The notes under the pieces: generated by a model | Told to the model about the DNA's origin: nothing | Database searches by the model: none | The model's input: only the letters and a program-made list of their open reading frames with translations | Assembly: GCA_014859165.1 (NCBI GenBank) | Contig: JACUUT010000002.1 | Span: 1 to 40,603, forward strand | Direction: 5' to 3' | Source: Dehalococcoidia bacterium | Lineage (GTDB): Bacteria > Chloroflexota > Dehalococcoidia > E44-bin15 | DNA: 40,603 nucleotides | Shown: positions 22,128-39,321 of the stretch, piece by piece | Numbering within the stretch: position 1 is the stretch's first letter | Layout: every line of letters begins with the position of its first letter | Translations under genes and position numbers: made by a program

Positions 22128-22204
22128 GTGCTTATGTGAGTATAATTATATGTATTTTTAATGTCTTAATGATGTTGGCAACAGCATAGTTTCTCGTATA
22201 TAGT

Positions 22205-22986: not shown

Positions 22987-25450
22987 TTACCTTGCTAATA
23001 AGCTTAGGGAGTCGAAAGCCCGCGGTGCGAACCAGTTCTACCGGAAGTTTCTAATCAGGCTGTTCTTCGAGGGCTTTGCCAAAGAGGATACGGAGCGCTC
23101 CCAAGAGGTAAATCAGCTACTCGGCAAAGTACCATATCTGAATGGTGGCCTCTTCCTGCCTCACCAACTGGAATTAGCGCATGGAGAAAACATCAACATA
23201 ACTGACGCCGCTTTTGAGCAGCTATTCGCTTTCTTTGACCGCTATAGCTGGCATCTAGATTATCGCCCACTGCGGGCGGACAACGAAATCAACCCTGACA
23301 TACTGGGTTACATCTTTGAGAAGTATGTTAACCAGAAACAGATGGGGGCTTACTATACCAAAGAAGATATCACCGATTACATCTGTAAGAACACCATAAT
23401 ACCATTTCTCTTTGATAAGCTTGAGAGCATGCGTTATGACGAACTCCATCCCTTCCCCATGGAGGACATTGAGCCGTACATCTACGAAGCGGTTAAGCAG
23501 GAAGATTACCTGCTCACCGAAACGGAACGGGAATATCAGGCAAGGCGGAAGCGTTACCAGCAGATTAAGCAGGACTTTGCCGCCGGCAAAATCTCCAGCA
23601 TCAACGACTTGATAACCTATAATCTTAACATTCGTAAGTTCGCTGAAGACCGGGCACGCAATATCAAAGACCCCGTTACCCTGCGTGCCTTCTACTTCCA
23701 CTGCCTTACCAAAGTGACTGTCCTTGACCCGGCAGTGGGCAGCGGTGCCTTCCTCTTCGCTGCTCTGAATATGCTAGAGCCACTCTACGAGATATGCCTG
23801 GACAAGATGGAAGAGCTGGGCGGTACCAAGTACCCCGACTTTGCTGAAGAACTGGCCAGAATCCGCCGGCATCCTAACCGCAAGTACTTTGTGCTCAAGA
23901 GCATAATCGTCAACAACCTCTTTGGTGTGGACATTATGGAAGAGGCGGTAGAAATCTGTAAGCTGCGTCTCTTCCTGAAACTTGTCTCTCAGGTCAGTGA
24001 TGTGGACAAGATTGAGCCATTACCGGATATTGACTTCAACATACGTGCCGGGAATTCGCTTGTTGGCTATGTCAATGAAGAAGAGATAAAGAAAGCTAAG
24101 GCAACTCAGCTAGACCTCAGTGGTGCACTCAAAGGAATTGAGGACAGGATAGAAAATGCTGATTGCGCCCTAAAAGCCTTCAGGGACTTGCAGACTAGGC
24201 TTGACATACGCGCTTCAGAGGTTGCCAAAGCCAAGGCGGAGATAAAAGCCAAGCTTGCTGAGATTCAAAAAGAACTGGATAGAGACCTGGCTGCCTTCTA
24301 TGGCGCCCGTGACGTTAAGCAATTTGTGAAGACGCACCAGCCGTTCCACTGGTTTGTTGAGTTTTATGGCATCATGAAGAATGGTGGGTTTGACGTTATC
24401 ATCGGTAATCCACCATACGTAGAATACAGCAAAGTAAGAAATACGTATACTATTAATAATTCAAAGTGCCTGGAGGCTGGCAACCTATACGCTTACATCA
24501 TTGAACGCTCCCTCAATATAGAGCGCTCATATTCTCGACTGGGCATGATAATACAGCTATCTGCATTTTGTACCCCACGTATGAAACCATTTCAGGATGT
24601 TCTGTTTGGATCAACGGACCATATTCATTTGTCGTTCTTTGATGATCGCCCGGGAAAATTGTTCGACGGACTTGAACACATTAGAGTTGCTATTGTACTA
24701 GTTCGAAAAGGTACTGGTTCACCCAAAGTTGCCACAACACGCTATATTAAATTTTCCACAGAAGCTCGCCCATTTCTTTTCGACAGCATTGTCATGCAGG
24801 CTAATGACCGCCCTAGACACGGCAGCAGTGTGCTAAAGGTATCAACCGCAACCGAAAATGAAATTGTCCGAAAGCTCTGGTCGATGAAACATACTTTATC
24901 AGACTATCTTCAGGAAGCCGAGAACAAGAACTTTGTGTATTACGGCTATGGTTTTGGCTATTGGGGCAAAATATTGAACTTCAAATCCTATTTTAGGGGC
25001 GAAAAAGTAAAAGCGTCAACTGGTGATAAATACATATATTGCCAGAAACAACTAGACAGGGATGTAGTTACGGCCATCATGAATTCGTCACTCTTTTATT
25101 GGTTCTATGTTAACTACAGTGACGGGCACAACTTCACAAAGCATGTTATCGGATCATTCCCATTTGAGATACCGGATCCAATAATCACGAATGAATTGAA
25201 AGAACTTTGTTCTCGCCTTATGGTTGATCTTAAGAAAAATACTAGGCGTAAGACGGCTTATTATGCAGCAACAGGACATATCGAGTATGAAGAGTTCTAT
25301 CCAAAGCTCTCTAAATCTATCATAGATGAAATTGACTACGTTCTGGCAAAGCGTTATGGCTTCACAGATGAGGAACTGGACTTCATCATCAACTATGACA
25401 TCAAGTATCGGATGGGTAAAGAGAGCGAGGAGGACAACAATGGTGACTGA
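22922..25450 (+). CDS. N6-adenine DNA methyltransferase, Eco57I/MmeI (type IIG)-like, apparently lacking an N-terminal nuclease domain
   Basis: LDRLMFIYFIQKKGFLDGD and VPYLNGGLF helical-region motifs, motif I DPAVGSGAFLF, motif IV IIGNPPYVEY, and a C-terminal TRD ending DEELDFIINYDIKYRMG. The first in-frame ATG after the junction with the recombinase fragment is 22922; the track start 22799 overlaps the other frame. Confidence 0.8.
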   Translation: MLDRLMFIYFIQKKGFLDGDIDYLANKLRESKARGANQFYRKFLIRLFFEGFAKEDTERSQEVNQLLGKVPYLNGGLFLPHQLELAHGENINITDAAFEQLFAFFDRYSWHLDYRPLRADNEINPDILGYIFEKYVNQKQMGAYYTKEDITDYICKNTIIPFLFDKLESMRYDELHPFPMEDIEPYIYEAVKQEDYLLTETEREYQARRKRYQQIKQDFAAGKISSINDLITYNLNIRKFAEDRARNIKDPVTLRAFYFHCLTKVTVLDPAVGSGAFLFAALNMLEPLYEICLDKMEELGGTKYPDFAEELARIRRHPNRKYFVLKSIIVNNLFGVDIMEEAVEICKLRLFLKLVSQVSDVDKIEPLPDIDFNIRAGNSLVGYVNEEEIKKAKATQLDLSGALKGIEDRIENADCALKAFRDLQTRLDIRASEVAKAKAEIKAKLAEIQKELDRDLAAFYGARDVKQFVKTHQPFHWFVEFYGIMKNGGFDVIIGNPPYVEYSKVRNTYTINNSKCLEAGNLYAYIIERSLNIERSYSRLGMIIQLSAFCTPRMKPFQDVLFGSTDHIHLSFFDDRPGKLFDGLEHIRVAIVLVRKGTGSPKVATTRYIKFSTEARPFLFDSIVMQANDRPRHGSSVLKVSTATENEIVRKLWSMKHTLSDYLQEAENKNFVYYGYGFGYWGKILNFKSYFRGEKVKASTGDKYIYCQKQLDRDVVTAIMNSSLFYWFYVNYSDGHNFTKHVIGSFPFEIPDPIITNELKELCSRLMVDLKKNTRRKTAYYAATGHIEYEEFYPKLSKSIIDEIDYVLAKRYGFTDEELDFIINYDIKYRMGKESEEDNNGD

Positions 25451-27365
25451 ACAGACTGTAAGCTTTGAAGATTTTCGGAACCAGTGGCTCGAAGATATCC
25501 AAAGCGGTAGTCCATCCACCGTCGAGCTGGGCCGCCGCTTCGCTCACAAACTCCTTATCCAGTGGCTGGATATCGAGAGTGCTTCCGACGACCTTGTCTA
25601 TTGTGATGGCAGTGGTGACGGTGGCATAGATATAGCTTACCTAGATCGTGGTGAACGTGGCGATACCGGAGAAGGTGAGGAAGAGTCTGCTGTAGGCCAT
25701 ACCTGGTACATTGTTCAAAGTAAGTATGGGAAAGCCTTTCATGGTACTACCACGCTTCTTGAAGAAAGTCAGAAGGTCATAGAAAGCCTTGATGGTAGAC
25801 GCCCTAAGCTGTCCTCTCTAGCTGAGGGGCTGCTTGAACGGTTAAGCAACTTTCGCAAGCAAGCTTCTGATCGGGACAGAATCCGCCTTGTATTTGCAAC
25901 TGAATTGCCTTTGAGCGAAGAGGAAAAGCAGGTTCTAAAGGATGTTCGTGCGATGGGCCGTGAACGCCTTGGCCCTATTTTTGATGTCGAGTCTATTTCT
26001 ATAGAAACCGTCTATCGGCGTACGCTTGAAGAATTGGTGACCGGTAAAGACCGGATTCGAGTACCGATCAAGGCAAACATGGTGAAATCTGGCGAGGACG
26101 TCTTAGTAGGCACGGTGACACTCATTGACCTCTTTGAATTCCTTAAGGCTTATCGGGATCGTACAGAAGATTTAGACCAGCTTTATGAAAGGAATGTGCG
26201 GCGCTTTCTGGGTGGTCGCGGCAAAATCAATAAAGGAATCCAAGAAACACTGCGCAATGCTCCGGAGCGCTTTGGATTGTATAACAATGGAATCACAATT
26301 GTAGTGACAAATTTTGTACTCAATGGAAATGGGAATATCGAACTAATAGAGCCCTTTGTCGTTAACGGATGTCAGACAACGAAAACCATTTGGGAGATCT
26401 GCTACGAAAAACTAGAAGCTGGTGGTACGGGCACCTCACCAGAATTGGAAGAATGGCGCAAGCGAGCTGGAGAAGGAGTTGTCATAACAAAGATTGTAAG
26501 GGTGGGGGACAATGGAGAAGAACTTGAGCGAGCTATTACTCGGTACACAAATAGTCAAAATGCAGTGAGGGAAAAGGATTTCCTCGCTTTAACTACGGAC
26601 TTTAAGAGATGGGCAAGCCTTATGTCTGAAAGATATGAGGTATTTCTGGAAAGACAGCGCGGTGGCTGGGATTCGCGCCGTGCACTACAAAAACAACGCC
26701 CCGACATTAAAAAATTTACTAAGGCAGCTAATGCCTTTGACTTACTAAAGGTGTACGGCTCGGGATGGCTTGGTGAAGCTGGAACAGCGTTTGGCAAGAA
26801 TGGGCCGTTTGTTCCGAATGGAGCCATATTCAAGAAGATTATGGAACCTGTCGACGGAGAAGATGAATCGTTCGGTGTAGATGACCTTTATGCAGCTTAT
26901 CAGTTACAGTGCGCAGCAGACAAACTTGATTTTGGCAGAGGAGCTGCCAAAATTACGCGCAAACAAACGAAATTCCTTTTCTACATGATTGTAATAGACT
27001 TGCTGAAAGACGTGATGACAAGGGCAGAGATAGCAGCGACTCGAAAAAATTGCACTCGTGCGTTGCTGAAACTCTTCGACGGCAACCACGAGTCAGCGGC
27101 GCAAGCACTACCTGATGCTGCGACGGAGGTGGTAGACGGATACCTTACTTCAGGTACAGATAATTGTGTGTTTGACGAGCCTGCGTATAAGAATACTTTC
27201 AACCATGACTTGAATGCCTTTCTGAAGTGGGAGAAGCTTGGCAAGACTGAAGAGGACTGCCCCCGGTTCCGCAACTTGCTCGCAGTTAACAAGGTCGCTA
27301 TGGGACAAAAAGTAGGAGGTCAGCCATCTATGCGCGAAACCATTAGGACGGCTATTGCTTCCTAA
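25440..27365 (+). CDS. AIPR-family (abortive infection phage resistance) protein with N-terminal Mrr-like nuclease motif
   Basis: YNNGITIV...VVNGCQTT AIPR hallmark. N-terminal DGSGDGGIDIAYLD...WYIVQSKYGK. ATG 25440 is preceded by GAGGAGG and overlaps the methyltransferase stop by 11 nt. Confidence 0.8.
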   Translation: MVTEQTVSFEDFRNQWLEDIQSGSPSTVELGRRFAHKLLIQWLDIESASDDLVYCDGSGDGGIDIAYLDRGERGDTGEGEEESAVGHTWYIVQSKYGKAFHGTTTLLEESQKVIESLDGRRPKLSSLAEGLLERLSNFRKQASDRDRIRLVFATELPLSEEEKQVLKDVRAMGRERLGPIFDVESISIETVYRRTLEELVTGKDRIRVPIKANMVKSGEDVLVGTVTLIDLFEFLKAYRDRTEDLDQLYERNVRRFLGGRGKINKGIQETLRNAPERFGLYNNGITIVVTNFVLNGNGNIELIEPFVVNGCQTTKTIWEICYEKLEAGGTGTSPELEEWRKRAGEGVVITKIVRVGDNGEELERAITRYTNSQNAVREKDFLALTTDFKRWASLMSERYEVFLERQRGGWDSRRALQKQRPDIKKFTKAANAFDLLKVYGSGWLGEAGTAFGKNGPFVPNGAIFKKIMEPVDGEDESFGVDDLYAAYQLQCAADKLDFGRGAAKITRKQTKFLFYMIVIDLLKDVMTRAEIAATRKNCTRALLKLFDGNHESAAQALPDAATEVVDGYLTSGTDNCVFDEPAYKNTFNHDLNAFLKWEKLGKTEEDCPRFRNLLAVNKVAMGQKVGGQPSMRETIRTAIAS

Positions 27366-27784: not shown

Positions 27785-29701
27785 CTATAGCTCTTCCAGG
27801 CCCAGCTCCCTGAGTTTCGGGGGGGTAGGTGTCCCGGTCTTCTTGTCCCAGCCCCGCTCCTCGTAGTAGTCGTCCAGTATCCGGTCTACATCCGCCTCGG
27901 TGAGAACGGTGGTCTTGTAGTAATCCATGAGGGGGAATTCGGTACCCTCGCCCTTGAGGGGGGTAAACCACACCTTGGGCGGTCGGTCATCCTTGCGCTC
28001 AAATCCTGCCCGGACGTTGAGCACCTTGAACAGGTTCCAGGCACGCTCAGCCACTTTATACAGCTCGGCGGGGGTTGTCTCCACCCCGGTGACCGCCGAG
28101 TAGAGCTCGGCAATATTCCTTACAGTGAAGAATCTGTTGATATAGAGGCGGTGGCACCTGCCCAGGCAATTTGAGAGGGAATACCAATCCTCGGTGTATT
28201 TGGTGAGCCGACCGGGGTTGAAGGAGGTAGTGGTGAAGGCCCGCTCCATTGCGTCTCCAGGAATCCCTATCTTCTCAGCCTCCCTCACCCACTGCTCAAT
28301 AGGTCTTCCCGGGTTATAGGAGGCAGAGCCTAGGCTGCCGGCGATGCCAGCGCAGCCCCCGGAGCGCGCTGGATGCACTATCTGGGCGATGTCAGGGGTC
28401 CCGAGGCCTGTTATCCTGGGATCCCCAAGAAGATAGTAGCCCTTGATGTGGACTGCATGGTCCTCTGCACCCTTACCAACCCTCCTAGCAGCACCCAGGA
28501 TGCCCTCGGCAAGCACATCGCCAAAGCCTTCCCTATAGGCTGTCATCTCTAGTAGCTTCATGTTGGTATCGAAGTCATCCACCAGTTCTATGCCACCGGT
28601 ATCCTCTTTGGTAATGATCCCCTGCTCATAGAGGTAAGCCATGAGGTCCTTCACAACGCCAAAGCAGAAGAGGCAAATCCCATATCTATTGGCGGCATCG
28701 CGGAATCTGACCGAGCGGTTGTGCTCCTCGAGAGCGCTCTCACCACCCTGTCCACTGAAGCCAAAGTGTGTCATGTAGGTTGTCATGCCGGCAAAGGGGC
28801 CTTCGCTTAGCCGGTTAAGCTCCTTGTCGGCCATGGGGCAACTGGCACAGGCGATAGGTTTTCGCACCCTGTTGTGTATCTCCCTCACATCGTGGCCTGG
28901 GGCGAAGCTAATCTCAGTATAGTTTTGGGAAATCTTAGCCGTTACCGCTGTCCAACTGGCGGTCATAGCCAGAAGGCCACCCTGGATCAGGGTGGGGCGC
29001 AGGCGGTAGTTCATGATGCTATCGAGCATCTCGTCCACCACCTTCCGCAGCTTGAGACGGTGGGCAACCCTTACCCCCCTTGTCCCTTGGACGGCGACAA
29101 TGGCCTTAAGTCTCTTGGAGCCCATCACCGCAGGAAGGCCACCCGAGCCCAGAGTGCCCCCCTTATCGATGGCGGTAACCGAAACCTTCACTAGGTTCTC
29201 CCCTGCCTGGCCTATGGGGATCACGCTGCAAGGATCATAGCGCTCTCTTAGCTCGTCAACCGTCTCGAAAGTATCCCTCCCCCAGAGGCCGCCGGCATCG
29301 CATAGCTCCACATCGTCATCAAGGATCTTGAGGTACACGGGCTTTTCGGCACGACCGCTGATGACCACATGGTCGTAGCCAGAGGTTTTGAGCATAAGGG
29401 CGAAATTCCCTCCCCCACAGGCGGTGGCGAAGGAACCATTAAGGGGAAATTTGCTGGTGACAAGTAGCTCTGCAGACCCGGGAACTATCGTGCCCGAGAA
29501 GGGACCGGTGCCGATTAGGATCGCATTCTCGGGGGAAAGGGGGTCGGCATCGGGGGGGATGAGGTCATAGGCCAGCCTGTTGTTGATCCCCCAGCCGCCG
29601 ATAAGGGCTCTCACCATTTCAGGGTCGAGGGGCTCCTTCCTTATCTGGCCGCTGGTCAGGTCGACGTAAAGGATGCTTCCAGCGTATCCGGGGATCTCCA
29701 T
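27785..29701 (-). CDS. aldehyde:ferredoxin oxidoreductase family protein (paralog 1)
   Basis: 638 aa. AOR N-terminal domain (YAGSILYVDLTSG...GGWGIN...GTGPFSGT) plus the C-terminal AOR domain. Confidence 0.9.
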   Translation of the reverse strand: MEIPGYAGSILYVDLTSGQIRKEPLDPEMVRALIGGWGINNRLAYDLIPPDADPLSPENAILIGTGPFSGTIVPGSAELLVTSKFPLNGSFATACGGGNFALMLKTSGYDHVVISGRAEKPVYLKILDDDVELCDAGGLWGRDTFETVDELRERYDPCSVIPIGQAGENLVKVSVTAIDKGGTLGSGGLPAVMGSKRLKAIVAVQGTRGVRVAHRLKLRKVVDEMLDSIMNYRLRPTLIQGGLLAMTASWTAVTAKISQNYTEISFAPGHDVREIHNRVRKPIACASCPMADKELNRLSEGPFAGMTTYMTHFGFSGQGGESALEEHNRSVRFRDAANRYGICLFCFGVVKDLMAYLYEQGIITKEDTGGIELVDDFDTNMKLLEMTAYREGFGDVLAEGILGAARRVGKGAEDHAVHIKGYYLLGDPRITGLGTPDIAQIVHPARSGGCAGIAGSLGSASYNPGRPIEQWVREAEKIGIPGDAMERAFTTTSFNPGRLTKYTEDWYSLSNCLGRCHRLYINRFFTVRNIAELYSAVTGVETTPAELYKVAERAWNLFKVLNVRAGFERKDDRPPKVWFTPLKGEGTEFPLMDYYKTTVLTEADVDRILDDYYEERGWDKKTGTPTPPKLRELGLEEL

Positions 29702-29725
29702 TTCAGGCAGCCACCCTTTTCTCCT

Positions 29726-30769
29726 TCAGCTATAGCGCCCGTATTGGCGACCAAACTCCAGGAAATGCTTGACATTTTCGATAGGTGCATTATCGGGGAC
29801 CTGACACCCGGAGCACAATATATATTTATATCCATTCGGTTCGGCGGCGGTATCGATGCACTCCTTTACCTTCTCGTCGATCTGATCTTTTGTCCCTATA
29901 ACATATAGCTCCGTTGGGAAATTCCCCTCAATTACGATCCTCCCTTGGGAGATCTCAACCAGCCTTTTGAGAGAAGAGGGGTCATCGATGCTCATCCCAT
30001 CTATCCCCAGCGAGACGAGGTCCTCCATGATGGGATCGGTGTAGCCGCAGATGTGGAGGAAAATCGGTGTTTCCCTCTGGCGCTTAAAGTGAGTGACGGT
30101 CTCCTCAAGGTAGGGTTTGGCCCATTCTCTAAACATCTTGGGAGATATTACACTGCTGCCTGCGTTTGGGTCAGCAACGGTTAGTAATCCTATCCCTGTT
30201 TCTAGCAGGGCATCGCCAACCATCTTGGCAAACTCGGTGGTGAAGCGAAGCAGATCATGGGCGAACTGAGGGTCATCTTTAGTGTCAAAAATGAAGTTTT
30301 CCATGCCTCTCAGCATCATCGCCGCTGTCCACGGGGAGATAGTAAAAGCATCAATTATCACATCGGGGAGTACTGAAATAGCCTTTTCACAGATCTCTAA
30401 GTGGTAAAGAAGACGCTCGTACTGCTTAGGTTCACGGAGTTCAATTTTGGCGAAGGTTGATTTGTCCCCCAAGAGGGGTTTCCCCCTCATGCCAAGGGCT
30501 TTGAGCTCCTCGAAGGAAAGCCCGACAATATTAGCGAACAAAGCATCATCTCCAACTAATATCACTATCGCATCTGAAGGAACGACTTCCTGTAGCGCAA
30601 CCATGGCCTTTATATACTTGTCAGGCTCGGTTCGCACCTCCTTGCCAGTGACGCCAGCAAGCTCCAGAGCGGGCTTTAAGGTTTGCATAGCCCTTACCGG
30701 AATCCTATCGGTAGCTTCACCCCCGAAGACAGCAGCCATGTGATCTTTTCCGCTGTATTGCCTCTCCAT
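29726..30769 (-). CDS. URO-D family methyltransferase (MtaA/CmuA-like, candidate substrate:corrinoid MT-I)
   Basis: 347 aa, uroporphyrinogen decarboxylase-fold pattern with LHICGY and LCSGCQVP putative Zn ligands. Confidence 0.8.
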   Translation of the reverse strand: MERQYSGKDHMAAVFGGEATDRIPVRAMQTLKPALELAGVTGKEVRTEPDKYIKAMVALQEVVPSDAIVILVGDDALFANIVGLSFEELKALGMRGKPLLGDKSTFAKIELREPKQYERLLYHLEICEKAISVLPDVIIDAFTISPWTAAMMLRGMENFIFDTKDDPQFAHDLLRFTTEFAKMVGDALLETGIGLLTVADPNAGSSVISPKMFREWAKPYLEETVTHFKRQRETPIFLHICGYTDPIMEDLVSLGIDGMSIDDPSSLKRLVEISQGRIVIEGNFPTELYVIGTKDQIDEKVKECIDTAAEPNGYKYILCSGCQVPDNAPIENVKHFLEFGRQYGRYS

Positions 30770-30793
30770 AAGACACCTCCTTCGATTTTGGCC

Positions 30794-31432
30794 TTAGCTC
30801 AACCCCAATAGCTCCTTTGCCTTGTCCACACCAGAGGCGGCATCGGGGGCATAGCCATCGGCACCGATCTTATCGGCGTAGCTTTGGGTTACTATTGCGC
30901 CGCCAATCATGGTCTTTATCTGACCCTTTAGGCCCGCTGCCTCGAAAGCCTCGATGGTGGTTTGCATCATGGGCATTGAGGTGCCGAGGAGGGCGGACAT
31001 GCCGACCAACCGGGCCCCCTGTTCCTTGGCGGCATCGATGAATTGCTGCGGCGAGACGCTGACCCCGAGATCGATGACCTCGAAGCCAGCCCCCTTGAGC
31101 ATTATCGCCACCAGGTTCTTCCCGATGTCGTGCACATCCCCCTGTACCGTTCCCAGAATTACCTTCCCTTTCAGCTTCGCGCCGGCACTAAGCAGCAGCG
31201 GCTCCAATACCTCCATCCCGGCTTTCATCGCTCTGGCGGAAAAGAGCACCTCAGGAAGATATATCTCCTTCCGCTTGAACCGTTCCCCCACCACCATCAT
31301 GCCTGCAATCAGCCCATCATCCAGTATCTTTTCTATCCCTATCCCCTTATCTACGGCTGCTTGGGTCAGCTCCCTCACCTTATCAGCTTGTCCCTCGATT
31401 AAATTCTCCCCTATCTCTTCAAGCTCACTCAT
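30794..31432 (-). CDS. corrinoid (B12-binding) protein
   Basis: 212 aa. N-terminal helical cap plus a Rossmann domain with the GDVHDIGKNLV (DxHxxG) motif. Confidence 0.9.
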   Translation of the reverse strand: MSELEEIGENLIEGQADKVRELTQAAVDKGIGIEKILDDGLIAGMMVVGERFKRKEIYLPEVLFSARAMKAGMEVLEPLLLSAGAKLKGKVILGTVQGDVHDIGKNLVAIMLKGAGFEVIDLGVSVSPQQFIDAAKEQGARLVGMSALLGTSMPMMQTTIEAFEAAGLKGQIKTMIGGAIVTQSYADKIGADGYAPDAASGVDKAKELLGLS

Positions 31433-31444
31433 CTCTGCCTCCTT

Positions 31445-32242
31445 TTATCGCTCGGTGAAATTTGGCTTCCTCTTCTCGATGAAGGCCCTCATCCCCTCTG
31501 TGAGGTCCGGCGATAGAAACAAGCGCTCCACAAGCTCTGGTTCGCAGATATACAAGTCGCCGAAGTTTGGTGCTGCGGCTGCATTGACAAGCTTCTTGGT
31601 CATCCTGATAGCCAGGGGAGCCCTGCTGGCAATTTTGTCAATCAGCTCATGGGCAGCCTCCATTAGCCGCTCCCGGGGGACAACCTTATTTACCAACCCT
31701 ATTGCCAGGGCTTCCTCAGCGCCTATGACATCACAGGTCAAAATCATTTCCTTGGCTTTGGCCGGCCCGATGAGCCGGGTCAGGCGCGGGGTGCATCCCC
31801 AGGTGAAGAACAACCCCACATTGGTTTCTGGGATTCCAAAGCTGGCGTTCTCGGAGGCTATTCTGAAATCGCACCCCATAGCCAGGACAAGCCCGGCACC
31901 TAGAGCAAAACCATTAACGGCGGCAATGGTAATTTGCTCCAAGCTTTCCAGGGAGCGGATGAAATCCTGACCCCCTAGCTGTCCCAGCCTCGCCCTGGCA
32001 TGAGGGGGAACGGGTCCCTCCGTTGGAACAACTAAGTCTCTCAGGTCGGCTCCCGACGTGAAGGCTCTCCCTGCGCCAGTAAATATTACGAACCTGGTTT
32101 CAAGGTCCGTCCTCAGCTCAGTAAAAAGCTGGTCAAACTCCGCCAGCATCTGACCATTCATGGCATTGAGTTTGGCCGGCCGATTTAGGGTCACTGTGGT
32201 TGTAGCTCCCAACTTTTCCACAAGCAAGGTTTCATATGCCAT
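31445..32242 (-). CDS. enoyl-CoA hydratase/isomerase (crotonase) family protein
   Basis: 265 aa with FTSGADL...GFALGAGLVLAMGCDFRIA...FGIPETNVGL crotonase motifs. Confidence 0.88.
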   Translation of the reverse strand: MAYETLLVEKLGATTTVTLNRPAKLNAMNGQMLAEFDQLFTELRTDLETRFVIFTGAGRAFTSGADLRDLVVPTEGPVPPHARARLGQLGGQDFIRSLESLEQITIAAVNGFALGAGLVLAMGCDFRIASENASFGIPETNVGLFFTWGCTPRLTRLIGPAKAKEMILTCDVIGAEEALAIGLVNKVVPRERLMEAAHELIDKIASRAPLAIRMTKKLVNAAAAPNFGDLYICEPELVERLFLSPDLTEGMRAFIEKRKPNFTER

Positions 32243-32262
32243 CTTATCCTCCTTTGTGCAAA

Positions 32263-32940
32263 TTAGAGCACAGACCTGCGATATTTACAACCCCCCATAT
32301 TGCAGTGGCGGCAGGGATTGATTTTCTGTTCGCTGTCCAAAGCGGCACCCAGGCCAACACAAAAGGAGACAGACTTCCTGGGGATCATCATGCAATTCTC
32401 ATTGAGGCGAACCCCCACCTTTTCACCGGGAAGGAGGGCAAAGAGCACTTTCTGATCCCTCAAGTCCCATTTCCCGTATCCAGGACTCAACCGAGCGCCG
32501 ACCCCAAGGCTCAGACCCTTTGCCCTTTGGCATATAAAATGATTAACGTAGTCGGCCACACTATCAGCCGCCGCTGAGCCCACGCTGTCTAACATCAACG
32601 CAGCGGGGTATTCCCCCTGGACGAAGAGTTCAGCGACCCTGTCTTCTAATGGTGAACCGATGGTGCATATTGCCACCCCTAAATACTCCGAACCTCTCCA
32701 GTCTTTTAGGGCATGTCCTGCCCCCAACATCAAACCATTGTCTAATATTATCGATCTTCCCACCACCTCTTTGACCCTCACCTGGGTGTAGAGCGCTTTA
32801 GGTTCGCTCAGGCTGTAACCATCCTCAATCTCCGTGCACAACAACTCCTCGACCGCAGGGGTTGGCTTACCCCTGTAGTGTTGTAACCTGAGGACCTCCT
32901 TTCCCTTTATCCTTACTTTTATCTCTTTTATGGTCTCCAT
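32263..32940 (-). CDS. methionine-synthase activation-domain-like protein (candidate corrinoid reactivation factor)
   Basis: 225 aa. LSPGYGKWDLRDQKVLFALLP...LNENCMMIPRKSVSF matches the MetH reactivation-domain pattern. C-terminal CRHCNMGGC. Confidence 0.7.
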   Translation of the reverse strand: METIKEIKVRIKGKEVLRLQHYRGKPTPAVEELLCTEIEDGYSLSEPKALYTQVRVKEVVGRSIILDNGLMLGAGHALKDWRGSEYLGVAICTIGSPLEDRVAELFVQGEYPAALMLDSVGSAAADSVADYVNHFICQRAKGLSLGVGARLSPGYGKWDLRDQKVLFALLPGEKVGVRLNENCMMIPRKSVSFCVGLGAALDSEQKINPCRHCNMGGCKYRRSVL

Positions 32941-32958
32941 AGGACCCTCCCCCGGAGC

Positions 32959-34851
32959 TTAGCATTTAAGGGGGAACCCCTCCAGCCCTAGCTCCTTTAG
33001 CTTCTCATCAGTGGGAAAACTTGTCTCCCTGTCCCAACCGCTCTCATCATAGTAATCATCTAAAGCCCTCTCGGTATCTTCCCTGGTGATTATGGCGTGC
33101 CCGAAGTAGTCCCTCATACGCCACTCCTTACCGTGCATTTTGAGCGGCTCAAACCAAGCCTCTGGAGCTCGATCATCCTTGCGGCTGAATCCCGCCCTGA
33201 CATTCAACAACTTATACATATTCCAGGCACGCTCTCCCGCTTTCAAGAGATCGGCTGGGGTTACCTCCACCCCGGTAATTGCTGAGTAGAACTCGATGAA
33301 GCTTTCCATGCCGTGGAAGCGGTGAATATAGAGTCGATGACACTGACCAACGCAATTGAAGAGGGAGTACCAGTCCAGAGCATGCTTGGTAAGCCTTCCC
33401 ACATTGTAGGAGTCGGGACCGAAGATACGCTCTATTGCCTCCTCAGACATACCTATCCTGCGAGCATGCATGATATGCATATCGATAGGGCGCCCTGGTA
33501 TGTAGATGCCAATGCCGCCGGGAGCATAGTGAGGGCGCCCCGGGTGCACCATCTGGCAAAAAGCCATGGAGTGGAAGCCATCTATCCTGGGCTCGATGAA
33601 CTGGGCACAGCCTTTGATATGAAGCAGATGCTTCTCCGCCCCGCTGCCGATCCTCTGGGCTACCCTGAGGCCACCTTCAGCCAGGAGGTCCCCGAAGCCC
33701 TCCCTATGGGAGATCATATGAATCAGCCTGAGGCTGGTATCATAGTCCGGCTCCGTCTCAAATCCGAAGCCGTCGGTGTCCTCCTTGGTAATGATCCCCT
33801 GATTATAGAGGGAAACCATCATATCCATTAGATTGCCGTAGTTACACTTGCAGACTCCGTCCCTATTAAACTTGTCCCGCCGGTAGACCGCCCTATTATG
33901 GCTATCCAGATAGGTGTTGCCACTGGATTCCCATTCTGCCATGAAATCCGTCATATACCCCACCATAGGGGCATATTCGCCTTCGGTAAGGCGAACCAGC
34001 TCCTTATCGCCCATAGGGCAGCTTGGGCAGGCGAGCGTCTTCCTGCTCTTTTTGTGTATCTCATCCCAAGCATCAACATCCACTTCCGCCAGGGCCCCCA
34101 GCCACCCTGTGGTCATAGAATAGGTGCCCCCTTCAATCAAGGTGGGACGCATGCGGTAGCTCATGACCCGCTCCATCATCCTGTCCACCGCCCTTTGCAA
34201 CCTGAGGGGGTGAGCAACCCTTATCTCCCTATCCCCCTGGCACGCCACAATGGCCTTGAGGTTCTTCGAACCCATAACCGCCGGCAGGCCTCCGTAGCCC
34301 ACCGTGCCCCCCTTATCTATGAAGGTTACCGAGATCCTGACCAGATTCTCCCCCGCTAGGCCTATAGGGATCACACTGCATGGCCCATGCCTTCCCCTGA
34401 GCTCATCGACGGTATCCCAGCCATCTAGACCCCAGAGGTCCCTGGCATCACATAGCTCCACATCGTCGTTTAGTATCTTAAGGTATACCGGCCTTGGGGC
34501 TCGGCCGCTGATGACGATATGGTCATATCCTGAAGATTTGAGCATGAGAGGGAAGTGCCCTCCGCCGCAGCTGGTGGCGATCCCCTCGCTAAGGGGGAGC
34601 TTGAAGGTGATGGATAGCTCAGAGGAACCAGGAACGATAGTGCCTGAAAAGGGGCCGGCCCCGAAGATGATGGCGTTCTCGGGGGCCAGGGGATCTACAT
34701 TTGGCGGGATAAGGTCATAGGCCAGCCGCTGATTGATCCCCGCACCTCCAATGAAGGTGCTCACCAGCTCGGGATCGAGGGCCTCCCTTTCTATCCTGCC
34801 TCTGCTGAGATCCACATAGAGGATTCTTCCCGCATACCCTAGCATCCTCAC
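32959..34851 (-). CDS. aldehyde:ferredoxin oxidoreductase family protein (paralog 2)
   Basis: 630 aa, collinear with paralog 1 and highly similar over the N-terminal 220 aa by eye. GTG start directly after the upstream stop. Confidence 0.9.
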   Translation of the reverse strand: MRMLGYAGRILYVDLSRGRIEREALDPELVSTFIGGAGINQRLAYDLIPPNVDPLAPENAIIFGAGPFSGTIVPGSSELSITFKLPLSEGIATSCGGGHFPLMLKSSGYDHIVISGRAPRPVYLKILNDDVELCDARDLWGLDGWDTVDELRGRHGPCSVIPIGLAGENLVRISVTFIDKGGTVGYGGLPAVMGSKNLKAIVACQGDREIRVAHPLRLQRAVDRMMERVMSYRMRPTLIEGGTYSMTTGWLGALAEVDVDAWDEIHKKSRKTLACPSCPMGDKELVRLTEGEYAPMVGYMTDFMAEWESSGNTYLDSHNRAVYRRDKFNRDGVCKCNYGNLMDMMVSLYNQGIITKEDTDGFGFETEPDYDTSLRLIHMISHREGFGDLLAEGGLRVAQRIGSGAEKHLLHIKGCAQFIEPRIDGFHSMAFCQMVHPGRPHYAPGGIGIYIPGRPIDMHIMHARRIGMSEEAIERIFGPDSYNVGRLTKHALDWYSLFNCVGQCHRLYIHRFHGMESFIEFYSAITGVEVTPADLLKAGERAWNMYKLLNVRAGFSRKDDRAPEAWFEPLKMHGKEWRMRDYFGHAIITREDTERALDDYYDESGWDRETSFPTDEKLKELGLEGFPLKC

Positions 34852-34852
34852 C

Positions 34853-36511
34853 TCAGGCTACCTCCTTCCTTTCCCGGCTCAAGGTGCCATAGGGGCAATA
34901 CCGGGCACAGATGCCACAATTGTCGCATTCATCGGTGAAAGAGACCATGTATTCAGTATCCGCCTTAACCAGCCTGCGGATTTTGATTCGAGCCTTTGAG
35001 GGGTTAAAGGCCCCCTCCAGCCTGAGGGAGCAGCGTAGTTCGCAGATCAAACATCCGCAGCATTTGGCCGGGTCAGCTATAATTGGTAGGTCACACCTTA
35101 AGCAGCGTTTTGCCTGCTCCACAGCTAGCTCCTCGCTGAGGGAGAGCTCTACCTCGGCAAAGCCAGCCAGTCGCTCAGCGATGGGTAATGAGGGGATCAT
35201 GGCCCGCTCGCCAACGGGCACCCAGGGCTCGAGGGGCGCTATCTCATCATGCGGCACTAGCTTCTCGTCGATCACCCCACTGCCACCGAGGTATCTGTCT
35301 ATCGAGATCGCCGCTCGCCTGCCTGCAGCAATGGCCTCGATCACCGAAGCCGGCCCGCTCGTCGCATCGCCGCCGGCAAAAACCCCTTCTCTACTTGTGG
35401 TCAAGGTATCGGGATCGGCCTCTAAGGTGCCCCTCTCACTAATAGCCAGCCCAAACTGGGCTGGGATATCAGGCACCTGGCCGATGGCCGAGATCGCCAT
35501 ATCAAAGCTCATGCTGAATTCGCTGCCCGCGATCGGCTCGGGTCGCGGCCGGCCGCTTTCATCCAGCCCTCCAAGCTTCATGCGGATGCACTCCATCTTG
35601 ACCGCACCGTTATCTCTGGTTATCCCTGTCGGCGCGGCGAGAAACTGAATCGTCACTCCCTCCTTAAGCGCCTCCTCTATCTCGGCTGGATTGGCAGGCA
35701 TCTCCGCCTGGGTGCGACGATAGATAATGGTCACCTCTTTGGCGTCCAGGCGGAGGGCGACACGCGCTGCATCTATGGCCGAATTTCCCCCACCAACCAC
35801 CGCAACCCTGTTCCCCAAGCTGACCTTTTGGCCCTGATTTACCTGCCTAAGCAGGGACAGGGACTCCACCACCCCCGGGCCATCCTCGCCCTCAACGCCC
35901 ATCTTCATCGGCTTATGGGCACCAACGGCCACAAATACCGCATCATGGCCCTGCCCAAAGAGCCCATCCGGTGAGTCGATTCTAGTGTTTGTCTTGATAT
36001 CAACCCCAATCCCTCTGATGGCGTCGATCTCGGCGTCGAGCACACCCCTGGGGAGCCGGTACTCAGGGATGCCTACACGCATCATTCCCCCGGGCTGGGG
36101 CAACGCTTCGAAAACAGTGACTCCATGGCCAAGCTTCGCCAGGTAGTAGGCCGCGGTGAGTCCTCCAGGCCCCGACCCGATAATGGCAACCCGCCTGCCG
36201 GTGGGCTTGCCAATTTTTGAAGCCTGCCTCCAGAGCCCTGTATCCCTTTCGGCCACGAATCGCTTGAGGGCCCTTATCATCATCGCCTCATCCACCTCAC
36301 TCAGCTGGCACTTGGCCTCACAAGGGCTGGGGCAGACGCGACCGCAGACTGAGGGGAAGGGGATCTTCTCGCGGATCACCGCTAGAGCTTCGCCGAACTT
36401 GCCATCGGCGATCAAACGATTGCAGCGCGGTATATCGACCCCAGCAGGGCACACCTTTACACAGGGTGCCTCAACCCCCTCCCTATACACCATGGAAGAA
36501 GCCTGCTTCAC
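34853..36511 (-). CDS. GltD-like NAD(P)H:FAD oxidoreductase fused to a 2x[4Fe-4S] ferredoxin domain
   Basis: 552 aa. N-terminal Cys clusters (GRVCPSPCEAKC), GSGPGGLTAA and VVGGGNSAID dinucleotide folds. The C-terminus has CCGCLICELRC and CDNCGICARYCP. GTG start with AAGGAG SD. Confidence 0.85.
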   Translation of the reverse strand: MKQASSMVYREGVEAPCVKVCPAGVDIPRCNRLIADGKFGEALAVIREKIPFPSVCGRVCPSPCEAKCQLSEVDEAMMIRALKRFVAERDTGLWRQASKIGKPTGRRVAIIGSGPGGLTAAYYLAKLGHGVTVFEALPQPGGMMRVGIPEYRLPRGVLDAEIDAIRGIGVDIKTNTRIDSPDGLFGQGHDAVFVAVGAHKPMKMGVEGEDGPGVVESLSLLRQVNQGQKVSLGNRVAVVGGGNSAIDAARVALRLDAKEVTIIYRRTQAEMPANPAEIEEALKEGVTIQFLAAPTGITRDNGAVKMECIRMKLGGLDESGRPRPEPIAGSEFSMSFDMAISAIGQVPDIPAQFGLAISERGTLEADPDTLTTSREGVFAGGDATSGPASVIEAIAAGRRAAISIDRYLGGSGVIDEKLVPHDEIAPLEPWVPVGERAMIPSLPIAERLAGFAEVELSLSEELAVEQAKRCLRCDLPIIADPAKCCGCLICELRCSLRLEGAFNPSKARIKIRRLVKADTEYMVSFTDECDNCGICARYCPYGTLSRERKEVA

Positions 36512-36566
36512 GCCATCTCCTTAGGCAAAAGTCGCATCCCAAAGTCGGTGGAAACACCTCGACCGT

Positions 36567-36595
36567 ATCTTACCCCTTGATGCGTAGCTGGTCAA
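36567..36595 (-). promoter_or_regulatory. candidate internal promoter
   Basis: Minus strand TTGACC (36595-36590), 17-nt spacer, TAAGAT (36572-36567), in the 185-nt gap upstream of the GltD-like gene. Confidence 0.35.
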
Positions 36596-36696
36596 TGCCC
36601 TTTCAACCCCCTTAAACTTGTTTTAGGGTTTGATGGTTATTCGGTTGATAGTTCCCCACCCCAACCTCTTAACCAACGAACTATCAACCATCATCC

Positions 36697-37491
36697 TCAG
36701 ACAATACGGCCATTTTGGTAGGCGTCAATAAAGTTTTCACAGTATTCATCCCGGCCGAGAAGCATCTCAACCGCAAGGAGGGTTGCCATGAGCTGCTTGT
36801 CGGTCGGATCTAAAATGGCGGCAGACAGACCATATGACATACAAAGAGCCAGAAAGTTGCGGTTGATCAGGCGGCGTTCTGGAAGACCGAAGGAGATGTT
36901 GGAGAGGCCACAGATGGTATTCACACCCGGAAAATCGTTCATGATTCTACTTATGGCTCCGAGAGTGGCGATTCCCATGCCAGTGTCCACAGAAACAGGC
37001 TGCACCAGCGTGTCCACATAAATCTTCTCAAGAGGAATCCCTTCAGCTGCGAGCTTCTTGATAAGTTCCGAACCGACCTGGACTCTCTCTTCCACGGTGG
37101 TGGGCATCGACGTTTGAGCCATGCAGAGGGCGACCACATGACAGGGCTGGGACGTGATTACAGGAATAAGGGATTGAAAGCGGTCTTCTTCCAGTGAAAT
37201 GGAATTGATCATCGGTTCGCCTTTGTGGTGTTTGATCGCTTCGGACAAGGCCTTGGGATTGGGGCTGTCCAGGCACAAGGGCAGATCCACTTCGCTTTGT
37301 ACCGTCTCGACCAGCCAGCAGAGGCAATCAGCCTCTTGTTCCAGGAAAGTTCCGGCGTTGACGTCAATGTAATGGGCCCCAGCTTCGGCTTGCTCCCGGG
37401 CCACTTTGTTGATAAACGCGGCATCCCGTTTCACAACAGCTTCTTCGACGCTCTTCCGACTCGTGTTGATCTTCTCTCCTACAATGATCAT
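36697..37491 (-). CDS. methyltetrahydrofolate:corrinoid methyltransferase (pterin-binding, MT-II)
   Basis: 264 aa. IIVGEKINTSRK...GAHYIDVNAG...NISFGLP is the pterin-binding (AcsE/MetH/MtrH-like) barrel pattern. Confidence 0.85.
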   Translation of the reverse strand: MIIVGEKINTSRKSVEEAVVKRDAAFINKVAREQAEAGAHYIDVNAGTFLEQEADCLCWLVETVQSEVDLPLCLDSPNPKALSEAIKHHKGEPMINSISLEEDRFQSLIPVITSQPCHVVALCMAQTSMPTTVEERVQVGSELIKKLAAEGIPLEKIYVDTLVQPVSVDTGMGIATLGAISRIMNDFPGVNTICGLSNISFGLPERRLINRNFLALCMSYGLSAAILDPTDKQLMATLLAVEMLLGRDEYCENFIDAYQNGRIV

Positions 37492-37973: not shown

Positions 37974-39321
37974 TCAATGACCATGATTACGGCTGCTATG
38001 AGGAGAAAGGCTGAAGGCTAGGCTAAAAGTTCTGCGTATTGTACACGGTGGCCCACCAAAGGTGACTTTTGCAAAACCGTCCTGCTCCCTCACTTTGTTT
38101 ACTCGGGCAAGATTCAACCGGCAACATATCTTCCTCGTCTTCAAGTCCTCGGACGGCAGGACCTTGAGTCCCAGCTTAGCAATTAGTTCTGCCTTCTCCT
38201 CAAACGCCGCTTCTCGCAGATTACGATCACGAAGAATCCTCAACTGCTCTCGCAGCTCGGCCTCAATGGTGCTAAGATCCTTGTTCGTCATCTGGTCTTG
38301 AAGCCCTTTGATCTCTGCCTCCGCCTTAGCAATGGTCCCCTGGTGCTCAGCAATCCTGGTTCTGACATCATCTGGGTTGTAGAAACCCTTCTCCCATCCC
38401 TCATGCACCTTGCCGATGCGGATTCTTGCCTGACTAATCTTCACCTGCTCCAACCTTATCAGTTGCTCAATATCCTCAGCCTTGGAGGAGTCCGCTGTTA
38501 ATTGCTGTTCCAGCCAGGCATCGCTACTCAGCATAGTGCAAATTTCCTCCCAGATCTCGTCATCCCAGGTTCCTGGAACAAACCGATTGTAGGTGCAAGG
38601 GTCTTGCAGCCAGAGGCAGTAGTGTGCCCGACAGTAGTAATAAACTTGGTCACTACCCCTCTTCTGCAGCACGGACATCGGCTTTCGGCATCGCGGGCAG
38701 AGCATCCGGCCTCGGAACAACGCGGGTATTCTTTTGCCCTGCTTACCCCGGCCGCGACCTCTTTCCCTGAGATTGTTATTGGCCCTTAGCCACCGCTCCT
38801 CAGTAGTAAGAGTTGGCACCTCGAATGTCACCTTCTCGCCACCGGGCTTTGGCCGCACGAGGGTCCTTTTTATGCCCAGAGTCAAGTCACCCAGGAGCCT
38901 GTCAGGGTTCGGAACGCGACCATTGGCGTTGTATTCACCCTGCCCCGTATAGCATTTGTGACTAGCAATAAGGAATAATGACTCCAGCTATACGTCTACC
39001 AGCTATCAGCTCTTTACACAGACGGGTAATGCCAGGGCGATTTAAGTCCTCGCTTGACTCAGCATCATATATCACGTATTCCCGGGGAATAATCGCGCCA
39101 TTTGGCCTGGTCAGTTTCGCACATGAAAGCAGATACTCCCCTAGTCGGTCATTCTCCGCCTGCTCCCGCGTGGATTGTCTTGTGTATGCGGCCCACCAAT
39201 GCTTCAGGTTTAAGTCGCACCCTCTCACGCCGAACCCCTGCTCGCAGCCAGCTGCTTTCGCTGCCTCTACAACATAACGGTCCAGACGTTCCTTACTCAT
39301 GGCTTCTATCGTCTGAGTCAT
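37974..39321 (-). pseudogene. large serine recombinase, frameshifted and internally deleted
   Basis: N fragment 38962-39321 (AAYTRQSTREQ catalytic Ser region...VIIPYC*). C fragment 37974-38885 (CPRCRKPM...YYYCRAHYC zinc ribbon plus coiled coil). The C frame is open from about 38965 in the +1 frame. Only about 75 aa separate the resolvase core from the zinc ribbon, against about 210 aa in the intact LSR. Confidence 0.7.

Follow-up and report, generated by a model that had tools for sequence, protein, structure and literature searches.

Why should a member of the Dehalococcoidia line up the genes of a corrinoid-dependent methyl-transfer system with those of a crotonase and two enzymes of the aldehyde oxidoreductase (AOR) family? 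The question is raised by positions 27785 to 37491 of contig JACUUT010000002.1 (GenBank assembly GCA_014859165.1), of which we analyzed positions 1 to 40,603; this whole stretch of 40,603 nucleotides is referred to below as the window. The operon consists of eight open reading frames (ORFs) that all lie on the minus strand and encode a pterin-binding methyltransferase II (MT-II), an iron-sulfur flavoprotein, two AOR paralogs (AOR-2 and AOR-1), a stand-alone MetH-activation-domain protein (MetHact), a crotonase, a corrinoid protein (CP), and a methyltransferase I (MT-I) of the UroD superfamily. A preliminary description of this DNA had claimed eight codirectional genes with gaps of 1 to 25 nt apart from one of 185 nt, and had suggested that they break down methoxylated aromatic aldehydes and acids. 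Its account of the layout is matched by the ORF coordinates (gaps in transcription order of 185, 1, 18, 20, 12, 24, and 24 nt, with genes called as the longest ORFs of an ORF list), and every one of its assignments of domain content and gene order was upheld by Pfam and NCBIfam. Our own reading, to which we give an even chance, is that the operon forms one anaerobic catabolic module for a methylated acid, which is probably handled as a coenzyme A (CoA) thioester.

This reading draws on the conservation of the gene set in relatives. Loci around relatives of the MT-I (45 to 79% identity) were labeled by using tblastn and precomputed Pfam matches; some neighbor labels rest on tblastn matches to proteins of the window or to proteins labeled in other loci, and reassemblies of one population were counted once (L003/L004/L005, L006/L007/L008/L060, and L001/L002/L037). 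A crotonase of the same clade (64 to 79% identity) adjoins the MT-I in nine other nonredundant contigs (L001, L003, L006, L009, L011, L043, L044, L053, and L107), and eight carry an AOR gene of the same clade (L001, L003, L006, L009, L011, L044, L052, and L107). The order crotonase, CP, MT-I, 86-amino-acid (aa) ferredoxin, AOR is found in L003, L006, L009, L011, and L044, and in L043 as far as the contig end, with identities of 68 to 76% for the crotonase, 68 to 80% for the CP, and 61 to 77% to AOR-2 for the AOR. Two contigs are arranged differently: L107 has crotonase, AOR, ferredoxin, and MT-I, and L001 has the crotonase followed by CoA_trans A/B, a 170-aa protein, the MT-I, four CoA_transf_3 genes, the AOR, and ferredoxins. 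That the association outlasts these two rearrangements argues for selection on the crotonase/MT-I/AOR set and not merely for shared inheritance; since the core recurs in independent contigs, the clustering of the eight genes exceeds chance.

The module can be compact. In L011 it is self-contained, with two family III CoA-transferases, MetHact, crotonase, CP, MT-I, ferredoxin, and AOR flanked by glnA and a sigma factor gene. Homologs of MetHact lie directly upstream of the crotonase or CP gene in L011, L013, L044, L106, and L112, and in the last of these MetHact (69%), crotonase (79%), and CP (85%) are kept together without an MT-I or AOR. CP homologs that are 65 to 85% identical adjoin the crotonase or MT-I in relatives, and paralogs of family III CoA-transferases, one to six per locus, adjoin the module in L001, L011, L036, L106, and L107, which would fit a CoA-dependent reaction on a side chain. 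A more classical operon occurs in L106, where the order is URO-D, MetHact, Pterin_bind (48% identical to the MT-II of the window), CP, URO-D, and a major facilitator superfamily (MFS) transporter. Because one MT-II serves two UroD paralogs there, we interpret the UroD proteins as variable substrate-side MT-Is. The closest relatives of the MT-I, crotonase, and AORs are all metagenomic sequences or belong to metagenome-assembled genomes (MAGs) of Dehalococcoidales, Dehalococcoidia, or Chloroflexota, with named sources that include sediments of the Guaymas Basin and of other hydrothermal vents as well as a "tar biofilm." By these relatives, the host is probably an anaerobic member of the Dehalococcoidia.

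Some further genes accompany the module in relatives. Upstream of it in L003 (positions 5427 to 8457), and likewise in L006, L009, L043, and L044, are genes for a metallo-beta-lactamase-fold hydrolase (Lactamase_B_3), a crotonase paralog that lacks catalytic Glu residues, and two GNAT acetyltransferases, a run that may supply extra CoA-thioester chemistry to the same pathway. A 228-aa protein that occupies the activator position in the L003-type loci was considered as a diverged MetH-activation protein and ruled out, as it is a second GNAT. A protein of about 170 aa with no Pfam match lies beside the MT-I (L001, positions 2540 to 3052; L014, around position 11068) or the crotonase (L114, positions 10954 to 11463), with 48 to 53% identity between these loci, and is absent from the window.

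The methyl-transfer components themselves are readily recognized. MT-II matches Pterin_bind (2.6e-21) and PRK07535 (336 bits; cutoff, 259), and its best Protein Data Bank (PDB) match, at 227 bits, is 4O0Q/4O1E/4O1F, which we take to be the MT-II of a Desulfitobacterium hafniense O-demethylase; the methyltransferase MeTr that serves carbon monoxide dehydrogenase/acetyl-CoA synthase (2YCI) follows at 189 bits. Structures 4O1E/4O1F are a template for the binding of methyl-tetrahydrofolate and tetrahydrofolate (THF) in catabolic MT-II enzymes (PMC13222342). The CP contains a B12-binding_2 cap (3.5e-22) and a B12-binding domain (9.3e-29), with the DxHxxG motif present as GDVHDIG. The MT-I is a clear UroD-superfamily member (URO-D, 7.9e-52, 177 bits) and was placed by its PDB and NCBIfam scores and by a clade profile (A1) built from 28 members. 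Residues H239, C241, and C322 are invariant in the 28 sequences and align with the zinc ligands of MtaA (LHICG and PGCG; HxC...C). Since zinc has been found in some MT-Is of aryl-O-demethylases too (PMC13222342), the motif has no power to tell the substrate class.

Compared with known O-demethylase systems (MtvABC, OdmABD, Dhaf_4610-4612, MtoABCD, and CdmBCA), the operon follows the same logic of a UroD-type MT-I, a CP with cap, Rossmann domain, and DxHxxG motif, and a pterin-binding MT-II, but it differs in having an MT-I related to MtaA and a MetH-activation-domain protein in place of the ATP-dependent reductive activator of corrinoid-dependent enzymes (RACE). It also embeds a crotonase gene between those for the activator and the CP and attaches AOR-family genes; neither feature is described for O-demethylase systems in PMC13222342 and PMC8630106. 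Among the MtaA/MtsA/MtpA/CmuA proteins (TIGR01463), MtaA is the best solved relative of the MT-I, with similar length and aligned zinc ligands, but the MT-I is bacterial, has no coenzyme M context, and is partnered with a THF-type MT-II, from which it is presumably the substrate-side enzyme here. The preliminary description had recognized in this set the architecture of anaerobic O-demethylases and related methyl-transfer systems. MT-I, CP, MT-II, and a reactivation-type protein are indeed present; the activator is not of the ATP-dependent kind, and the MT-I falls outside the aryl-methyl-ether clade.

How the CP would be kept active is suggested by MetHact, which matches Met_synt_B12 (PF02965) at 30.6 bits (cutoff, 25) and has as its best PDB match 1J6R of Thermotoga maritima (37.7 bits), with RLSPGYG aligned to RISPGYG. 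In an alignment of five homologs, R150-x-SPGYG and a C-terminal C210-x2-C213-x4-C218 are invariant, as are Cys92 and Cys137. No RACE-type ATP-dependent activator is encoded among the eight genes or their neighbors. The protein belongs to the same fold family as TM0269 of T. maritima and the MetH reactivation domain and shares their RxSPGYG S-adenosylmethionine motif, but in comparison with TM0269 it has the additional invariant CxxCxxxxC motif at its C terminus and is encoded with catabolic-type methyltransferases rather than with a split methionine synthase. It is probably the S-adenosylmethionine-dependent reductive reactivation factor of the CP, and its cysteine motif might bind a metal ion or an iron-sulfur cluster through which electrons enter. 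A stand-alone MetHact with such a motif suggests that catabolic corrinoid proteins could be reactivated independently of ATP.

The crotonase (ECH_1, 3.3e-62) is nearest in the PDB to Crt (5Z7R, 190 bits) and 3-hydroxypropionyl-CoA dehydratase (5ZAI, 185 bits). Its catalytic positions were read against the active-site stretch of rat enoyl-CoA hydratase (ECH). In all eight module-linked crotonases aligned, the position of rat Glu144 is occupied by Val or Ala, and that of Glu164 is kept (within IPE). The pattern extends through the best 120 homolog clusters (57 to 80% identity, metagenomic or Chloroflexi): the first Glu is missing from every readable cluster (101/101), the second is kept in 78 of the 79 in which its motif could be read, and nearly all carry F[F/Y]TW[G/A]. 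By these residues the protein is not a canonical two-Glu hydratase. One-base crotonases are suited to act as isomerases, eliminases, or hydratase-lyases; hydroxycinnamoyl-CoA hydratase-lyase (HCHL) keeps only the second catalytic Glu, and the methylthioacryloyl-CoA hydratase DmdD keeps both. A second crotonase paralog found in relatives (L003, positions 6160 to 6963; L106, positions 7105 to 7899) has neither.

The suggestion that the crotonase is a feruloyl-CoA hydratase/lyase is thus borne out as far as the single Glu goes, but the protein is not detectably closer to that type than to generic crotonases: its best 60 PDB matches consist of generic hydratases, isomerases, and MenB and include no HCHL or DmdD entry. 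With the HCHL/Ech and CouA routes the module shares the single second Glu, CoA activation genes nearby in relatives, and an enzyme of aldehyde-oxidizing type encoded alongside. It differs from the HCHL route in lacking any specific sequence affinity, in having CoA-transferases instead of a ligase, in the wide distribution of the clade through Chloroflexota in other contexts, and in having a tungsten/molybdenum AOR-family enzyme in place of an NAD-dependent aldehyde dehydrogenase.

Both AORs match AFOR_N and AFOR_C with E values of 1e-57 to 1e-63. They were aligned by using MAFFT with formaldehyde ferredoxin oxidoreductase (FOR), two AORs, and BamB, all rebuilt from PDB alignments; the middle of this alignment is moderately reliable. 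The AORs of the window and their relatives are about equidistant (26 to 32% identity) from FOR, the AORs, and BamB. In six of seven module AORs, AOR-1 (CASCPMAD) and AOR-2 (CPSCPMGD) included, CxxCxxxD replaces the CxxCxxxC cluster motif, and among the best 120 homolog clusters of AOR-2 (at least 50% identity) the third cluster position is Asp in 110 and Glu in 8, which accounts for all 118 in which the motif was found. Members of the clade that carry names come from MAGs of Chloroflexota, Thermodesulfobacteriota, Deltaproteobacteria, and Bacillota. The tungsten oxidoreductase (WOR) family comprises 92 clades, of which just 5 include an enzyme whose physiological role has been defined; Thr243, Glu313, Tyr427, and His448 are conserved in most aldehyde-oxidizing members, and benzoyl-CoA reductase is the only known member that does not act on aldehydes (PMC13328260). 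Judged by their motifs, both enzymes of the operon belong to a sequence-defined, uncharacterized clade, for which "aldehyde oxidoreductase" serves here as a family label.

The two paralogs are 57% identical (BLASTP). Between positions 28592 to 29724 and 33769 to 34874, stretches of 69 to 300 nt, regularly about 5,150 nt apart, are still 71 to 77% identical at the nucleotide level. This similarity fits a gene duplication inside the lineage rather than the independent acquisition of two distant genes. AOR-2 is the ortholog of the AOR that follows the MT-I in relatives (61 to 78% identity), and AOR-1 occupies the ancestral position, without the small ferredoxin.

AOR-2 also has a partner of its own, since the flavoprotein gene ends 1 nt upstream of it. 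In the PDB the flavoprotein best matches the N-terminal, NfnB-like portions of 9BOV (420 bits) and 8OH5_C, followed by NfnA (9N5U) and 4YLF_B, whose deposited name is dihydropyrimidine dehydrogenase subunit A; no AorC chain is among its PDB matches at an E value of ≤1e-10. It is probably the NAD(P)-linked electron module of AOR-2. In L115 (positions 5305 to 8864; a Thermodesulfobacteriota MAG), a flavoprotein gene (47%) and an AOR gene (62%) overlap at stop and start and are followed by one for an alpha/beta hydrolase, and methyltransferase and crotonase genes are absent there. We regard flavoprotein and AOR-2 as a separate portable pair, in which AOR-2 shows the NAD(P)-linked class III arrangement in modified form. 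As in class III WOR (WorLSN, for example AorABC of Aromatoleum aromaticum; PMC13328260), an AOR-family subunit is encoded beside a FAD- and NAD(P)-binding electron-transfer protein. The operon departs from that arrangement in that an NfnB/GltD-like flavoprotein that carries N-terminal clusters of its own and is fused to a ferredoxin domain replaces the separate WorS and WorN; there is no separate WorS gene with four [4Fe-4S] clusters, the match to AorB (8C0Z) is weak, and the catalytic subunit has CxxCxxxD and no Glu313.

How might these proteins work together? As a module they would take a methyl group off a small organic acid and process what is left of the molecule; the steps of this mechanism are all read from family membership and conserved context. 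The MtaA-like MT-I would pass a methyl group from the substrate to the Co(I) form of the CP, and MT-II would pass it on to THF; cobalt oxidized to Co(II) would be restored by the TM0269-like protein through reductive methylation with S-adenosylmethionine, the C-terminal cysteines being a possible point of electron entry. The single-Glu crotonase would act on an acyl-CoA by a reaction of the hydration/retro-aldol or beta-elimination type, not by classical two-Glu hydration, and the AORs would catalyze a two-electron redox step on its product, most simply from aldehyde to acid, with AOR-2 wired to NAD(P) via the fused NfnB-like/ferredoxin protein and AOR-1 to free ferredoxin. The first step of the pathway would fall to CoA-transferases, which are encoded beside the module in relatives but not in this window. 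Our leading candidate for the substrate is a methoxylated phenylpropanoid acid of the ferulate type. We put it forward tentatively and rate it well short of probable, because for each of the three key enzymes a specific test of membership came out negative. Conversion of a feruloyl-type CoA ester to an aldehyde and acetyl-CoA, followed by oxidation to the acid and O-demethylation, would nevertheless be the most economical of the substrate models. The acetyl-CoA set free could be the CoA donor for the adjoining CoA-transferases, which would explain a module that contains transferases but no ligase or acyl-CoA dehydrogenase, as in L011. The habitats of the relatives, rich in aromatic compounds, also favor the feruloyl-type model.

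A number of observations weigh against the reading of the operon as one module for a methylated acid, or against individual steps of it. Some concern the gene set. Among the relatives examined, MT-II is not found within 10 kb of the module except in L106, and the flavoprotein/AOR-2 pair is within 10 kb of it in none; the pair also occurs alone (L115). Linkage in relatives, which the preliminary description had named as a test of its proposal, is therefore kept for the crotonase-CP-MT-I-AOR core, even where it is rearranged, but not for MT-II and the flavoprotein/AOR-2 pair. As the pair is absent from the modules of relatives and stands alone elsewhere, the eight genes represent a local assembly, in which a portable NAD(P)-linked AOR unit and an MT-II have been combined with the conserved module. 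Three relatives of the MT-I (P0029, P0033, and P0057) stand alone without informative neighbors, and the window contains no CoA-transferase, ligase, or transporter gene. The crotonase clade is large and may have a general function, given that members at 62 to 64% identity often occur in unrelated contexts (L113 and L114), which leaves only the closer subclade tied to corrinoid genes.

Other observations of this kind concern the enzymes. The MT-I scores below the curated cutoffs of TIGR01463 (MtaA/CmuA; 113 versus 235 bits) and MtaA_Meth (102 versus 400 bits). Its clade profile gives 108 bits to MtaA (4AY7) and 19 bits (E = 0.005), over the C-terminal half only, to CdmB (9RUI), and a single-sequence search did not find CdmB at an E value of ≤0.001. 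CdmB groups with MtvB, OdmB, and VdmB. At 347 aa the MT-I also lacks the size of about 47 to 48 kDa that marks the MtvB/OdmB/VdmB/MtoB/CdmB clade (extensions between the first beta-strands; MtoB, 47 to 48 kDa; CdmB, 429 aa). Within the UroD superfamily its sequence places it toward MtaA and outside the aryl-O-demethylase/halomethane MT-I clade. The AORs, which the preliminary description took to interconvert aldehydes and acids, lack residues conserved in most aldehyde-oxidizing members: in both paralogs Glu313 of Pyrococcus furiosus AOR (EYE) is replaced by Met (YMTHF in AOR-1 and YMTDF in AOR-2), His448 is not conserved, in a region where the alignment is moderately reliable, and Asp stands in the cluster motif. 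Across the AOR clade the Glu313 position holds Met, Leu, Ser, or Thr. The aldehyde step is accordingly uncertain, and aldehyde oxidation is an assumption of the scheme because of these replacements.

Four other explanations have to be weighed. One is that the module breaks down methylated sulfur compounds of the dimethylsulfoniopropionate (DMSP), 3-methylmercaptopropionate (MMPA), or methional type, with the MT-I acting like MtsA or MtpA on a methyl thioether, the crotonase eliminating or hydrating a thio-substituted acyl-CoA, and the AOR oxidizing acetaldehyde or methional. The marine and hydrothermal sediments from which the relatives come would suit such substrates, the two UroD paralogs of L106 are what two successive S-demethylations would lead one to expect, a one-base crotonase suits E1cB elimination, and family III CoA-transferases, to which the DddD-type DMSP lyases belong, are abundant beside the module. 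The MT-I lies on the MtaA branch with its HxC...C zinc motif, and the enzymes of this branch that act as MT-I use methylated thiols (MtsA and MtpA) or chloromethane (CmuA) (Kurth et al.). The zinc motif, however, does not discriminate, the role left for the AOR is forced, and the conserved module contains neither a ligase nor an acyl-CoA dehydrogenase for the DmdC step. The crotonase clade, moreover, lacks the first of the two Glu residues that DmdD keeps, and DmdD is missing from its best 60 PDB matches. We consider this explanation unlikely. The AORs could instead be BamB-like low-potential reductases, or other non-aldehyde enzymes, that act on an aryl- or enoyl-CoA after the methyltransferase has stripped a methoxy or methyl group, with the crotonase hydrating the AOR product in the style of a dienoyl-CoA hydratase. 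The Met at the Glu313 position lies in a "YM" motif as in BamB (YMMKC), and the nonconserved Glu313 and His448 are conserved mainly in aldehyde oxidizers, benzoyl-CoA reductase being the only known exception to aldehyde chemistry (PMC13328260). Identity to BamB (27 to 29%) is about the same as that to FOR and AOR; the AOR of relatives comes after a small ferredoxin, rather in the manner of BamC, and the context is one of CoA esters, with CoA-transferases, HGD-D (Bcr/Hgd-like) proteins, old yellow enzyme-type reductases, and a thiolase nearby in L003, L006, L052, and L107. The resemblance to this class II benzoyl-CoA reductase ends at the tungsten ligand Cys322, which is Phe in the AORs of the operon, and at the partners, as there are no BamC-I partner genes and hence none of the bifurcating BamDEFGHI type; on established thermodynamics NAD(P)H could not by itself drive ring reduction through the NfnB-like module, and the pair that stands alone next to a hydrolase gene resembles a general oxidoreductase. 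Such a role seems to us quite improbable.

It is also conceivable that the operon is a mosaic of independent functions that share only a promoter, namely, methyltransferases, an NAD(P)-linked AOR pair for aldehyde detoxification, and a housekeeping crotonase of beta-oxidation. The absence of MT-II and the NfnB-like/AOR-2 pair from the modules of relatives, the separate existence of that pair, the crotonase and MT-I homologs that occur in unrelated contexts or alone, and a low-GC defense island with recombinase genes next to the operon all point that way. It is difficult to reconcile with a mosaic, however, that the crotonase, MT-I, and AOR occur together in nine (crotonase) and eight (AOR) other contigs, at 45 to 79% protein identity and in two different gene orders, and that L112, which has neither MT-I nor AOR, still keeps MetHact, crotonase, and CP together. 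We regard the mosaic as improbable. Least is to be said for an anabolic system resembling a split methionine synthase, in which methyl-THF would donate via MT-II and the CP to a zinc-containing MtaA-like enzyme that methylates a thiol. The four modules of MetH are reproduced (pterin-binding domain, B12 cap and Rossmann domain, RxxxGY activation domain, and a zinc-dependent thiol-type methyltransferase barrel). The links to crotonase, AOR, CoA-transferase, and MFS transporter genes are nonetheless catabolic in character, two UroD paralogs per MT-II in L106 are typical of substrate-specific MT-Is, and MT-II lies outside the module in most relatives; an anabolic role is very improbable indeed.

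The catabolic module for a methylated acid thus remains our preferred reading, and the layout of its genes is given in Table 1. No terminator-like sites were found on the minus strand between the eight genes. A 12-bp hairpin (about positions 36643 to 36689) lies directly behind the MT-II stop codon; it has no U tract, and its fold is not significant against shuffled sequences (z = -0.77). The 185-nt gap also holds a weak promoter-like site (TTGACC-17-TAAGAT, positions 36595 to 36567; score, 9/12). From these two features, transcription of MT-II might in part be separate from that of the other genes. No riboswitch or other known RNA was detected at Rfam gathering thresholds in the whole window, and none at an E value of ≤1 between positions 36400 and 38100.

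Table 1. Genes of the operon, in transcription order, and of the adjoining region in the window
Feature	Positions	Strand	Domains or remarks
MT-II, pterin-binding TIM barrel, predicted methyl-corrinoid:tetrahydrofolate methyltransferase, 264 aa	36697..37491	-	Pterin_bind, PRK07535
Intergenic gap, 185 nt	36512..36696	-	Hairpin and promoter-like site
NfnB/GltD-like iron-sulfur flavoprotein with fused C-terminal 2x[4Fe-4S] ferredoxin, 552 aa	34853..36511	-	Fer4_20, Pyr_redox_2, Fer4
AOR-2, AOR/WOR-family pterin enzyme, 630 aa	32959..34851	-	AFOR_N + AFOR_C
MetHact, stand-alone MetH-activation-domain protein, TM0269-like, 225 aa	32263..32940	-	Met_synt_B12
Crotonase-superfamily protein, single-Glu clade, 265 aa	31445..32242	-	ECH_1
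CP, corrinoid protein with B12 cap and Rossmann domain, 212 aa	30794..31432	-	B12-binding_2, B12-binding
MT-I, UroD superfamily, MtaA-like, presumed substrate:corrinoid methyltransferase, 347 aa	29726..30769	-	URO-D
AOR-1, paralog of AOR-2, 638 aa, no ferredoxin gene adjoining	27785..29701	-	AFOR_N + AFOR_C
Large serine recombinase	19527-21191		
Integrase fragment	22399-22986		
Eco57I/MmeI-type restriction-modification enzyme	22799-25450		
AIPR abortive-infection-type protein	25326-27365		

Core chromosomal genes occupy the first 18.6 kb of the window, among them purA, tuf, nusG, rplK/A/J (preceded by an L10 leader), radC, and rpoB/rpoC. Amid these genes, between radC and rpoC, positions 7892 to 9859 encode a 655-aa protein of the Prismane/CO-dehydrogenase family (564 bits), which, judged by its size, may be a CooS-type anaerobic CO dehydrogenase rather than a hybrid-cluster protein, and which would fit an anaerobe that feeds methyl-THF into acetyl-CoA-pathway chemistry. 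Positions 19118 to 27365 begin with five tRNA genes (Val, Leu, Arg, Val, and Ala), followed by the recombinase and defense genes of Table 1. This stretch looks like a defense island inserted beside tRNAs, and it directly adjoins the operon. The GC content is 44 to 49% in the recombinase/restriction/AIPR stretch and 54 to 60% elsewhere, with 52 to 60% in the operon itself. Just upstream of the operon, a 303-aa ORF (positions 37974 to 38885) whose sole domain is a recombinase zinc ribbon (24.7 bits) looks like a recombinase remnant; it and the large serine recombinase are unrelated to each other. A search for att-like direct repeats linking the tRNA cluster with the opposite end of the operon found none. 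Gain of the operon by horizontal transfer is a suggestion drawn from GC content and neighbors only.

The preliminary description did not know this gene combination as a described pathway, and our keyword searches of open-access papers and preprints agree. They returned no description of the combination, nor of the MT-I clade, the single-Glu Chloroflexi crotonase clade, or the CxxCxxxD AOR clade without Glu313; searches for O-demethylation or DMSP use in Dehalococcoidia and for the "tar biofilm" MAGs likewise returned no description of the gene set. Corrinoid methyl-transfer systems, crotonases, and AORs are individually well known, and it is their conserved combination for which no description was found. 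We know of no gene that has been assigned to an anaerobic corrinoid demethylase for DMSP or MMPA.

Dehalococcoidia are among the most abundant bacteria of marine subsurface sediments, yet few have been cultured and their diet is largely inferred. It is possible, though we would not call it probable, that the module represents an undescribed anaerobic pathway, widespread in sediment Dehalococcoidia, in which an MtaA-like MT-I, a single-Glu crotonase, and a new AOR clade act on one abundant methylated sediment compound and deliver its methyl group to the THF/acetyl-CoA pathway; that compound could be a methoxylated phenylpropanoid or DMSP/MMPA. The locus draws attention to three uncharacterized enzyme clades with clear signatures, the MtaA-like MT-I, the single-Glu crotonase, and the CxxCxxxD AOR without Glu313. 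The AOR clade, with Asp or Glu at the third cluster position and no catalytic Glu, might catalyze a non-aldehyde reaction and would, if so, be only the second such case in its family after benzoyl-CoA reductase. A conserved module in which a corrinoid demethylase is coupled with a tungsten/molybdenum enzyme and with the chemistry of CoA esters would give the Dehalococcoidia a concrete substrate route and would connect the methyl pools of sediments, whether lignin methoxyl or organosulfur methyl groups, to folate and the acetyl-CoA pathway.

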